This document shows positions 42,285 through 59,957 of a stretch of 64,000 nucleotides of DNA, in pieces. Made by a program: the position numbers and the translations under genes. The notes under the pieces are model-generated. The model saw only the letters and a list, made by a program, of their open reading frames with translations, ran no database searches and had not been told where the DNA came from. Each line of letters begins with the position of its first letter. Within the stretch, counting starts at the first letter, position 1. Source of the DNA: Botryllus schlosseri (taxonomy: Eukaryota); the NCBI GenBank assembly GCA_051294905.1, contig CM119371.1, positions 10,604,001 through 10,668,000 of the forward strand, given 5' to 3'.

Positions 42285-42345
42285 ATGAACCAGAGGGGCG
42301 AATCTGTGTACGAAGAAGGATATCTCGATATTTACGAAACCGCAA
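42285..42345 (+). CDS. Intelectin-like gene exon 1 ([20 protein letters not shown])
   Basis: aaaATG start; donor A|gtaaag in phase 1 matches the next exon's phase. Confidence 0.7.
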
Positions 42346-57300: not shown

Positions 57301-59957
57301 TATTATTTCAAATCGAATTCTGCAACTGCATTTCTTGAAATATACGTGGTCGTGTCTTGAAAATCCGCGCTTTCGATTTGATATGAACGAGTACCGAAAA
57401 TCTATTTGCACAAACATATGTGGTGGCGAATGTAATATTAGCACATAACGCTTCCGACGACGCATATGGGTATAATCGCAACAAATATGGCACCAAAATT
57501 GACAAGCAAATGATAATGAATATATACCGTCAAGCCTGGTCTTTTCTATCTAGCATTCTAGCAGCTTATCTTGAAGTTATCATGGAAAATGGTTATGTAG
57601 GGGAGATGTGGTACCGATGGATCAAAAATTGGAAAATGATCGCTGGCTCCAAAATGTTCAGCCGAAAACAGCAGATCTTTTGCTGGCTCAGCACTTTGAT
57701 ACAATCTCTACCTATCGCGCACATATACATGAATATCCGTCTTTTCAAAAAATATTTATGGATGTTTAAAATTTGTTGCTCGAACGTGTCATCGGTCCCA
57801 ACCCGGTGGGTCCAATGGACACGACCCGGGGACCTATGACACATATACCCTAAAAAACTCAGATGTGACCACTTTTCTTGCTTAGTATTATAATCTAAGC
57901 TACAGCAAGCCAAAGAAGAATTTTCGGTCGCAACCGTCAAAAAATAGATTAAATATTGACACAAATGTTGTCATAAAATCACGTTTCGATTTAGGCTTGG
58001 ACTTATAAATTTGAAGGTACATACATATTGCCCGAAAATCGACAGTGTGACTTCCAAAGACCTCGTTATAGCGATAAAACATCATATACAATTATTACAT
58101 AAAGATTTTCTGTACGTAGTCATGTTTCATTTGTTTCATGATTAGTATGCTTGATTATTTTGCTTGATTTGGCTGTTGTATCATCGGTCCCCACCCTACT
58201 AATTTTGTACATGAATCGAAAAAAATCCACTCAAGGAAAGTACTGAAAAAAATAATAGGTTCTATTATATAGCCTGATACAAGCCCTAGACTTCACAATA
58301 AAAATGATTGCTGGTTTGTTTGTGTTGAAGGTTACAAAGAAAAATGTATATGTCGATATAAATTTAGTTTACACCCCCCAAAACAAAAAAACATCTGTGA
58401 GCGACCCCATAGTTCGCGCACGTCGAATTTTTTTGTATGTGAGGAAAGATGTTGCCAGTATGCAATTGTAGACAAGTTCACGAAGTGTAATCATGGAATT
58501 ATCATAGAGAATTTTCAAAGTATTTTCGGTCCCAGTGATCCATCGGTACCACATCTCCCCTATATCACAGGATGAAAACGATTTTTGTAAACAATTGGAA
58601 GACGCGTGATTGACCTTACTTATCAAACTTTTTTTTTCACAATTACCAACAAAACATTTTTAAACAGCAACATTTTTGTATCAGTAGGCTATTTGCAATT
58701 AGAATGAGTCTGCACAGTGTACAGTGTAAGGTATTTCATCTCAGATGGCCATTCTGTTAATGTGAGCTCTGTAGTTTTACTAGTACTGTACCGAAACTGC
58801 CTCGTGATTTTCTGAATTTCCAACAAAATTAGGTGATCAATTATTTTGAGGCTTCGTGGACCCCTACTCGTGATATTACGAAATATCAAAGAGAGAAATC
58901 AGACTGCTAGCAATCGCAACGGATAGTTTGATGGCATTGAAGGTTATATGGCTATTGAGGAGAGAATTCTCAAATATGCACTTCGAACAATAGACAATAG
59001 CTAATGGATATACCATGAGCTGGAAGTAAATCGCGCTAAGGGCGAAAAATTTCAGTTAACAGCAGCTTTGCGCCCCCCTTCGGATGCTTTCGCGTCCCGT
59101 ACTTTAAGAACTACTGCTATAGACAATGGTCTTCGTCATAATTGAAATATTTTCTAAACATTTCATCAAAACGTGATTGCTAAATCCTTTTTCTGACGTC
59201 ACAATTCTCAATCGCATAACGCGGAAAACTGCAGTTTTCGAAAATTCAAATGGAATTTGCCAAAAATCTAGACCTGATTGAAGAAAATGGATGACAGTTG
59301 TGGATTCAGCATCAAAAAGTATACTAAGAACCGTCAATACTGTAGTAACCTTGAAATTCACGCAGCACAGTATTATAAGTAGTTTTGTACGGTATATCCA
59401 AGCATTCTTTTGGATAGGCCTATATATAGACCTGTGAATGGGAGTGGACCAACAGTACTACTGAACAGGCTTAAACGTATGGTTTCTTCGTGAGGGCAAA
59501 TTCCACAACGTGTGAAAACAAGTGCGCGTCAGCAAGAAAGTTCATGAAAGCGGAAGCGATAATCTTGGTTCGACTGGTGTTCATGTGGACTATTTTCTGG
59601 TGCATGTAATTGCAACAAGTTATTAAATATGACTGACTCTCTCTAGTTCGCACACTAAGCAATGTTGCGAATATGTCATTCTCAATATGTGTTTTGTGGA
59701 CGGGGAACAAAATCGATTGATACATTTTCAGTTGCCCACTGGTAGTGTTTTTGAATTCAAATTCGTACTAGTACCCGAATTAATTTATGTATCTTTTACA
59801 TGCGAAATCGTAATTCATACTTGTCTTGTCAATAATGTCCTGATCTGCTTTCTTGAATTATTCAGGGAAAACGAATTGGGAAAATTCGATGACCTTTGGA
59901 GAAGTGAGAAAGTGTCTTCACGATGACTATAAAAACGCTGTGTTTCATAAAGTATCG
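42285..59957 (+). CDS. Type II transmembrane intelectin-like (fibrinogen-related X-type lectin) protein; 5' part only, 3' exons not found in the window
   Basis: Five exons join in frame: Tyr-rich N-terminal tail, TM helix, RPASCLEL...[28 protein letters not shown]...[15 protein letters not shown]...DDYKN. These match intelectin signatures (FCDM..GGGWTLVASVHEN, KC..GDRW, NW.N..TFG, DDYKN). Confidence 0.8.
42826..42998 (+). CDS. Intelectin-like gene exon 2 (basic juxtamembrane segment and [26 protein letters not shown])
   Basis: Acceptor gtttcag, donor gtaatc; K/R cluster before a 24-residue hydrophobic helix indicates a type II anchor. Confidence 0.8.
43381..45172. mobile_element. Non-autonomous hAT-like element with (TATGG)n subterminal repeats; contains a nested MITE at about 44206-44775
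   Basis: TIR cagggcatggtatggtatgg; perfect 8-bp TSD cgtgaaac. Confidence 0.9.
45360..45393 (-). ncRNA. Minimal type I hammerhead ribozyme (family A), in a solo repeat at about 45299-45485
   Basis: Minus strand reads accc-CTGACGA-G aatcagc C-GAA-AATATT-C-gggt; core intact. Confidence 0.78.
46897..47025 (+). CDS. Intelectin-like gene exon 3 ([43 protein letters not shown])
   Basis: Acceptor tcttccag, donor GAG|gtaagt; phase 0-0; start of fibrinogen-like domain (P.SC.E....SG.Y/H.I). Confidence 0.88.
48747..49350 (+). mobile_element. Penelope-like retroelement 3' fragment (frameshifted GIY-YIG endonuclease plus hammerhead-bearing terminal repeat)
   Basis: VY...[19 protein letters not shown] in one frame and [11 protein letters not shown]...F.I...GR....L.ALES.FI....P.LC.QKE in another are typical of the Penelope GIY-YIG domain; followed by a repeat found at several other sites in the window. 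Confidence 0.85.
49255..49288 (+). ncRNA. Minimal type I hammerhead ribozyme (Penelope-associated, family A)
   Basis: accc-CTGACGA-G tgtcagc C-GAA-AATATT-C-gggt: intact core, 4-bp stem I, palindromic stem III; predicted cut after C49284; about 100 nt downstream of a GIY-YIG-like ORF. Confidence 0.8.
50185..50784 (+). mobile_element. 5'-truncated CR1/L2-type LINE (ORF2 C-terminus, 3' UTR, (CT)n tail)
   Basis: H.HYTRS......LP......KRSI.YSG..IWNALP..IR....FKK motif; AATAAA followed by a ctctct tail. Confidence 0.8.
52251..53019. mobile_element. hAT-like MITE inserted in a tttaaaaca-rich element (about 52185-53380)
   Basis: TIR .agtggttctcaac; TSD ttttaaac. Confidence 0.8.
53599..53731 (+). CDS. 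Intelectin-like gene exon 4 ([33 protein letters not shown]...YK)
   Basis: Acceptor cttccag, donor G|gtatat; intelectin-type motif. Confidence 0.93.
54550..55487. mobile_element. hAT-like MITE; related interrupted copy at about 57083-58866
   Basis: TIR cagtggttctcaacc; perfect TSD ctctagtg. Confidence 0.9.
57600..58560. mobile_element. TA-flanked TIR element (Tc1/mariner-type target site) nested in a hAT MITE
   Basis: 25-bp perfect TIR ggggagatgtggtaccgatggatca, flanked by TA. Confidence 0.85.
59866..59957 (+). CDS. Intelectin-like gene exon 5 ([31 protein letters not shown])
   Basis: Acceptor attcag, donor gtgagt; phase 1 start matches exon 4; NW.N..TFG...DDYKN motif. Confidence 0.92.

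Follow-up and report, generated by a model that had tools for sequence, protein, structure and literature searches.

Can the intelectin fold, known from lectins that the literature regards as secreted markers of microbes, also form the head of a membrane receptor that has a cytoplasmic tail with a task of its own? The question is raised by a gene on the forward strand of a 64,000-nucleotide stretch of the genome of Botryllus schlosseri (GCA_051294905.1, contig CM119371.1, positions 10,604,001 to 10,668,000; the whole stretch is called the window here and positions are counted from its first letter). A first-pass annotation made from the letters alone had read this gene as a membrane-anchored intelectin-like receptor with a hemITAM-like motif (hemi-immunoreceptor tyrosine-based activation motif) in its tail. 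The best explanation of our data is a type II membrane-anchored receptor of the intelectin family, which probably acts through a different residue, the family-conserved Tyr 17, as a docking or sorting site, while the claim of a hemITAM on an intelectin turned out to be the weakest part of the finding.

Within the window the gene consists of five coding exons (Table 1), which are spliced in frame to 588 nucleotides, i.e. 196 codons without a single stop. All exon borders are canonical GT-AG borders with compatible phases, exon 3 being in phase 0 at both ends. The start codon, an ATG at position 42285, has an A at -3 and is preceded by an in-frame stop 33 codons upstream. The start and end positions given in the first-pass annotation are exact, the number of exons agrees as well, and every peptide string quoted there is present in the sequence. 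Exon 5 is the final exon within the window and the gene continues past the window end, such that the intelectin domain is covered for roughly its first third and its C-terminal two thirds lie beyond. When family members shorter than 900 residues were searched against the window by tblastn, 214 high-scoring segment pairs were obtained, located exclusively on exons 3, 4 and 5 (10, 133 and 71, respectively). The best E-values with relatives were 2e-4 for exon 3 and 8.9e-9 for exon 5. The same search yielded no further family exon between positions 59958 and 64000 and no second copy of the gene elsewhere in the window.

Table 1. Features of the membrane-anchored intelectin-like gene; positions refer to the window, a slash marks the splice border
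Feature	Position	Strand	Residues and content	Splice borders
Coding exon 1	42285..42345	+	1-20; start codon and start of the acidic, Tyr-rich tail (Tyr 9, 13, 17); ends in phase 1	donor AA/GTAAAG
HemITAM-like motif E-E-G-Y-L-D-I	42312..42332	+	10-16; contains Tyr 13	
Family-conserved Tyr motif Y17-E-T-A	42333..42345	+	starts with Tyr 17; the codon of the closing I takes its last two bases from the start of exon 2 (42826-42827)	
Coding exon 2	42826..42998	+	remaining tail, basic cluster, transmembrane helix	acceptor ttcag/, donor ACG/GTAATC
Transmembrane signal-anchor helix (predicted)	42915..42986	+	51-74	
Coding exon 3	46897..47025	+	extracellular stalk and start of the lectin domain (Cys..E-L-R-Q-N-G)	acceptor ttccag/, donor GAG/GTAAGT
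Coding exon 4	53599..53731	+	intelectin core (a ten-residue stretch ... V-A-S-V-H-E ... D-D-R-W)	acceptor ttccag/, donor AGG/GTATAT
Coding exon 5	59866..59957	+	intelectin stretch N-W-E-N..F-G and D-D-Y-K-N	acceptor attcag/, donor TCG/GTGAGT

The joined product starts with a tail of 50 residues, followed by a helix, a short Cys-bearing stalk and the beginning of the intelectin domain. Its topology was judged by a 19-residue Kyte-Doolittle window together with the positive-inside rule. The helix is the sole strongly hydrophobic stretch of the product, with a hydropathy maximum of 3.12 at residues 56-74, and no N-terminal signal peptide was found, as hydropathy over the first residues reaches only 0.36. 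Lysine and arginine account for seven of the 15 residues that precede the helix and for one of the 15 that follow it. By the positive-inside rule, this distribution points to a signal anchor that keeps the N-terminus on the cytoplasmic side, in full agreement with what had been proposed for helix, short stalk and orientation. The product is therefore predicted to be a single-pass type II membrane protein and would reside at the cell surface. Its cytoplasmic part carries the three tyrosines listed in Table 1 in an acidic cluster, spaced four residues apart.

The nature of the head is evident from exon 4. Compared alone with the sequences in the Protein Data Bank (PDB), it matches four solved intelectin-type sequences at E-values of 1.3e-12 to 5.7e-11, namely those of lamprey serum lectin (7E1E), two constructs of human intelectin-1 (4WMQ and 6USC) and Xenopus XEEL (4WMO). 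The next-best matches are fibrinogen beta (8.3e-4), ficolins (about 0.012) and FIBCD1 (4M7F; 0.019), and Pfam reports Fibrinogen_C at E 1.1e-4. For exon 5, the same four intelectins are the sole PDB matches at E-values up to 10, albeit weak ones (0.07-0.31 over 30 residues). Exon 3 alone gave one chance match in the PDB (E 1.7); it aligns with the stalk and the domain start of relatives. One of these, the Styela clava protein P0004, finds the intelectins at E 1e-43 and FIBCD1 at 4.5e-7, and taken over the comparisons with exon 4 and with P0004, FIBCD1 trails the intelectins by 8 to 36 orders of magnitude. Because of this gap, which is apparent with exon 4, exon 5 and the relative, the head is assigned to the intelectin type and not to the FIBCD1 type, as the first-pass annotation had it. 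The window protein also contains the core of the N-terminal intelectin subdomain, C-D-M..G-G-G-W-[TS]-L-V-A-S-x-H-E. Taken together, the comparisons support an ectodomain of the intelectin type rather than of the ficolin, FIBCD1 or C-type lectin type, and a head of this kind would be expected to bind glycans. Homology to the intelectins or X-type lectins is confined to this domain: the characterized members are secreted with the help of a signal peptide, whereas the window protein has a cytoplasmic tail and a signal anchor instead.

Proteins of the same build are not unique to Botryllus. The closest database match of exon 4, with 76% identity, is the predicted protein P0001 of Styela clava, and a search with the first 260 residues of P0001 retrieved 23 proteins: 16 from Styela clava, two from Logan assemblies, one fish intelectin and four distant fibrinogen-domain proteins. 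Of the 18 tunicate-type proteins, 13 have a tail and behind it a hydrophobic helix at a distance of 37-93 residues from the N-terminus; the remaining five are apparently N-terminally truncated or short. A library-wide HMMER search with P0004 returned 1718 proteins at E-values up to 0.001, the best 150 of which were examined. Among the 165 proteins examined altogether, at least 22 of less than 1000 residues exhibit the internal-helix build. Besides those from Styela clava, they include P0031, P0040, P0061 and P0124 from Ciona intestinalis and P0048 and P0098 from Phallusia mammillata. A secreted, signal-peptide-bearing relative (P0033) exists in the same species as membrane forms. A fish protein, P0065, was considered as a further membrane form and rejected, as it is an isoform extended N-terminally in front of a signal peptide (its cluster mates have 295-297 residues), and an amphioxus protein with an internal-helix score is ambiguous.

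A careful tree was built for the domain part encoded in the window, with 47 rows and 114 columns. In it, the window protein belongs to two starred sets, one with 9 rows (98/86) and one with 15 (96/84), in which all other members are proteins from Styela clava or Logan assemblies, 12 of them with the helix and two N-terminally truncated. Its nearest neighbors are P0011 and P0015 (89/78), and the Ciona membrane forms make up a separate clade (100/99). A quick tree of 81 rows agrees with this picture. By itself, the placement points to a stolidobranch ascidian, most likely a relative of Styela, for which the collections searched contain no annotated proteome. Judged from the shared architecture and the tree, the window gene is a member of a family of membrane-anchored intelectin-like proteins that occurs across ascidians with lineage-specific expansion and is public only in the form of automatic predictions, all named 'uncharacterized' or '-like'. 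Examples are LOC120340930 (P0004), LOC144426847 (P0001) and LOC120342979 (P0011) from Styela clava, LOC100185179 (P0031) from Ciona intestinalis and CAB3262707.1 (P0048) from Phallusia mammillata. They share with the window protein an N-terminal tail with a Tyr motif, one internal helix, a stalk with Cys and the intelectin-type domain, but sequence identity does not exceed 52% in the domain and amounts to 35-40% overall, so that none of them is an orthologue. The window tail furthermore has Y-L-D-I and is devoid of the second motif R-Y-E-N. The view that the architecture had not been described is in line with the literature, where our full-text searches found no paper on a transmembrane intelectin, and does not hold for the databases, in which such predicted proteins are available for all three species. 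The count of tunicate intelectins by Yan et al. (2013) may mention such forms. Passages of a placozoan paper describe secreted intelectins and cite 22 tunicate intelectins (PMC6321704), and in passages of papers on the Styela clava endostyle intelectin 1 and 2 appear merely as marker genes (PMC10980280, PMC9953650).

The tails of these relatives allow the three tyrosines to be weighed against each other. Patterns were counted over 23 family tails, i.e. that of the window protein and 22 others, and 16 tails were aligned. The column of Tyr 17 holds Y in 15 of the 16 aligned rows and F in the remaining one, and it spans Styela, Ciona and Phallusia. The pattern Y-E-x-x-[IVM] occurs in 13 of the 23 tails, those from Ciona and Phallusia included, and Y-x-N is likewise found in 13 of 23, mostly as R-Y-E-N a few residues further on. 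At the level of sequence, the family therefore has a conserved tyrosine motif of its own, Phi-Y-E-x-x-[IVM]. The nearest domain relatives, P0011 and P0015, carry neither tail pattern, and the tail of P0011 is devoid of any Tyr.

The build of tail, anchor, stalk and lectin, together with a tyrosine that is kept across the three ascidian orders sampled, argues for a surface glycan receptor with a tail that has its own task. We envisage that the lectin head would bind glycans on the outside of the cell, probably microbial ones as is the case for soluble intelectins. Clustering of the receptor could then let the tail act through Tyr 17 within Phi-Y-E-x-x-[IVM], which may serve as a phosphotyrosine docking site or as a sorting signal. 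Phosphorylation of the tail and signalling by it would be part of the former variant.

Since the tail starts in exon 1, the membership of this exon in the gene deserves attention. It precedes exon 2 by 480 bases, shares its strand and has the end phase that is needed for joining the two. It begins with M-N-Q just as three relatives from Styela clava (P0004, P0008, P0025), blastp aligns the joined product with P0004 and P0008 from residue 1 onwards, and the joint of exons 1 and 2 completes the family motif Y-E-T-A-I. For transcript support, four public sequencing runs (X1, X2, X4 and X23) were aligned to positions 42000-60200. Record 9 of X2, a contig of 313 letters, covers 42844-42997 and continues directly with 46896-47023, which is the predicted joint of exons 2 and 3, with one base that fits either side. 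Record 1 of X1 (222 letters) matches 42826-42997 and starts exactly at the predicted acceptor of exon 2, with 27 unplaced letters before and 23 after the match. Record 5 of X1 (266 letters) matches 53597-53730 in exon 4 and extends beyond the match by 93 and 39 unplaced letters; for both X1 records, the second piece is missing from the alignment rows listed. Each aligned piece of the contigs shows 0 to 6 letter differences from the window, and the contigs may stem from alleles or very close paralogues. Depth is 0 in X1 and X2 for several unique intron bins (42000-42606, 51105-51711 and 52319-52925), and these runs accordingly fit RNA rather than whole-genome DNA. The splice junctions of the first-pass annotation are in this way borne out for exons 2 and 3, which are seen joined, and for the borders of exons 2 and 4 that the contigs reach, while the joint of exons 1 and 2 was not encountered in any of the four runs and rests on homology.

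A number of observations weigh against a Tyr 17-dependent intelectin receptor. There is no contig or weighty read on exon 1 in any of the four runs; the bin that holds it (42000-42606) has a depth of 0 in X1, X2 and X4 and of 0/0.03 in X23, and a search with exon 2 as protein query among near-length proteins gave no candidate and hence no transcript-derived fragment for its joint with exon 1. A profile of the N-termini of ten relatives ranks the exon 1 frame first among 3432 six-frame segments of the window, which is support for its membership rather than proof, and does so with an E-value of only 0.7. The nature of X1, X2 and X4 as RNA is only guessed; X23 is a raw-read RNA run with the same species label, and its depth does not exceed 0.42 on any exon bin. 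Record 15 of X2 passes the border of intron 4 and exon 5 unspliced. With respect to the tail, the window protein does not contain Y-x-N and thus lacks the second motif of the family, [RQ]-Y-[EQK]-N, and we know of no SH2, PTB, adaptor or AP-2 consensus that fits the conserved motif around Tyr 17. As to the head, the part of the domain that binds sugar and calcium lies beyond the window end, leaving the lectin competence of this gene putative. Finally, no true orthologue was found, the best identity in the domain being 52%.

We consider docking or sorting via Tyr 17 most likely, followed by FIBCD1-like uptake and then by coupling of a hemITAM to Syk, with a shed precursor or a faulty gene model in the last places. 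An endocytic or scavenger lectin receptor resembling FIBCD1, in which the tail is used for uptake and Y-L-D-I represents a Y-x-x-Phi sorting signal for AP-2, is the best of these rivals and nevertheless unlikely. FIBCD1 is a type II membrane protein with a short tail and a head from the fibrinogen superfamily that works in endocytosis, and Y-L-D-I does fit Y-x-x-Phi. The head of FIBCD1 itself is a classical fibrinogen-related domain, from which that of the window protein is clearly set apart by the E-values given above. Against this rival, just 7 of the 22 other tails contain Y-x-x-[LIVMF], and they do so at non-homologous positions; in the motif that is conserved the hydrophobic residue sits at +4 and not at +3.

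We give still less credit to the reading of E-E-G-Y-L-D-I as a hemITAM, according to which clustering would lead to phosphorylation of Tyr 13 by a Src-type kinase and to recruitment of the tandem SH2 domains of an ascidian Syk, as in Dectin-1 and CLEC-2. The likeness is real: the hemITAM receptors Dectin-1/CLEC7A, CLEC-2 and CLEC9A share type II topology and a single Tyr-x-x-[LI] preceded by acidic residues near the N-terminus, and the window protein fits the pattern [DE][DE]xYxx[LI]. Intelectins are oligomeric and could gather several tails. The pattern is also rare in shuffled sequences: out of 100000 shuffles each, 320 contained it for the 50-residue tail and 2190 for its acidic first 21 residues. 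Although this rate is unusual, the pattern was picked after the sequence had been seen, and one chance match among about two dozen tails is unremarkable and not compelling. A figure legend in PMC13344425 gives an accession for SYK from Ciona intestinalis, so that the kinase is not missing from ascidians; our literature search on hemITAMs in invertebrates brought up nothing useful among the papers listed.

What speaks against the hemITAM is its distribution. The strict pattern is present in 1 of the 23 family tails, which is the window's own, and in none of the 22 others. The column of Tyr 13 holds Tyr in just 3 of the 15 other aligned tails (P0004, P0005 and P0001), the close relatives P0008 and P0025 have Gly or Glu at this position, and the nearest domain relatives P0011 and P0015 do without the motif. 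The first-pass annotation had named a Tyr motif that is not conserved in orthologues as a point on which its reading would fall. The motif is indeed not conserved in the relatives and the reading is weakened accordingly, with the reservation that the proteins compared are no true orthologues and reach at best 52% identity in the domain. The string itself is present as claimed, and it sits on an intelectin-type head in place of the C-type lectin head of the hemITAM receptors; coupling of the window protein to Syk is speculative.

It is even less probable that the protein is a membrane-bound precursor, from which a soluble intelectin is shed by cleavage of the stalk, or a Golgi resident in the manner of glycosyltransferases. 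Golgi enzymes and shed type II ligands likewise show the order of short tail, helix, stalk and globular head, the stalk of the P0004 structure model is disordered (residues 80-101, pLDDT below 50), and with P0033 a secreted relative is at hand in the same species as membrane forms. A tyrosine that is kept from Styela to Ciona and Phallusia in tails of 50-90 residues is, on the other hand, not readily explained for a tail without a function of its own. Least credible of all is a partly wrong model or a dead gene, with a foreign exon 1 or a missing or broken 3' part and no tail-bearing receptor, which would fit the lack of RNA on exon 1, the cut by the window end, introns full of dispersed repeats and the very low expression in X23, but not 196 open codons with perfect splice sites, the existence of spliced contigs and an exon 1 that displays start, Tyr spacing and motif of the family at a short distance upstream and in a compatible phase.

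A wider scenario can be proposed only tentatively and we would not count it as the expected outcome. In ascidians the intelectin fold, elsewhere known from a soluble opsonin, may have given rise to an expanded family of surface receptors that signal, with Phi-Y-E-x-x-[IVM], often with Y-x-N behind it, serving as a novel docking module for phosphotyrosine binding. Lectin-receptor signalling would then have been invented independently, in parallel to the C-type lectin receptors of vertebrates with their hemITAMs and ITAMs, and the added Y-x-x-I of the window gene could couple to Syk. Tunicates are the sister group of the vertebrates and, having no antibodies, depend on germline-encoded recognition. 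A membrane-anchored, tail-bearing and strongly expanded tunicate branch of the intelectins would add a receptor class to the immunity of invertebrate chordates, and the tyrosine conserved in Styela, Ciona and Phallusia offers a concrete experimental handle in the form of a single residue.

The relatives provide information on the part of the head that is not covered by the window. A structure model of P0004, built from 23 sequences with a mean pLDDT (predicted local distance difference test) of 78.8, has a disordered tail and stalk, a helix at residues 52-81 and a head that superimposes on human intelectin-1 (4WMQ) with a Z-score of 35.3 and a root mean square deviation of 2.6 Å over 270 residues. 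In a Foldseek search with the model, intelectin-1 was found at E 5e-21 and a TM-score of 0.82 and FIBCD1 at E 2.6e-5 and a TM-score of 0.34. The intelectin domain of P0004 is split, as its residues 95-260 and 497-610 align with residues 21-186 and 197-306 of the human intelectin-1 chain. The relatives do possess the C-terminal half that is specific to intelectins and holds the calcium and sugar site. Unlike the solved intelectins, most ascidian family members contain an extra domain of about 235 residues (about 260-497 in P0004), inserted after the position of human intelectin-1 residue 186, and P0009 and P0012 have two copies of it. The corresponding position in the window gene is beyond the window end.

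The insert matches no Pfam family, and a search of the ESM Atlas gave no match of at least 0.9 and no structural match with a TM-score of 0.5 by query. It is modelled as a confident beta-sandwich, and its best structural matches come from glycoside hydrolases and phosphorylases, namely from their mutarotase-like N-terminal domains (Z-scores of 7-9, root mean square deviation of 3-4 Å over about 140-185 residues). With Z-scores in this middling range, a mutarotase-like kinship of the modelled domain is a lead only. The same module is found as tandem copies in other tunicate proteins from Ciona and Clavelina, at least one of which also has CUB domains. The inserted beta-sandwich hints at a second binding module in the relatives.

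The surroundings of the exons, in a window with a G+C content of about 39%, are rich in repeats. Intron stretches at approximately 43800-46200, 47500-51100, 52900-53500, 54100-55900 and 57200-59000 show a very high summed word depth and many mutual joints; presumably they are dispersed repeats derived from transposable elements, some of which are transcribed. Short tandem repeats coding for Tyr, Gly, Met and Trp are located at 43387-43482 and 45053-45109. Pfam searches with 20 long open reading frames of the window returned only an NHL repeat and two sub-threshold matches, and no family for the open frames in introns. One of the latter, a Cys/His-rich frame of 171 residues on the reverse strand (60665-61180), lies in the intron that follows exon 5 and may have been left by a mobile element. 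The NHL repeat (PF01436, E 1.7e-6) resides in an open frame on the reverse strand at 13342-13698 that is probably an exon of a neighboring gene. A reverse-strand frame of 157 residues at 6854-7327 has a sub-threshold match to serpentine seven-transmembrane chemoreceptors (21.1 bits at a cut-off of 22.8) and is either an exon for a membrane protein or due to chance. At 1960-2366, again on the reverse strand, a fragment resembling ribosomal DNA matches positions 1457-1888 of the 3401 in the Rfam model for the eukaryotic large-subunit ribosomal RNA (RF02543, 63.4 bits) and stands isolated, far from any full ribosomal RNA gene in the window.

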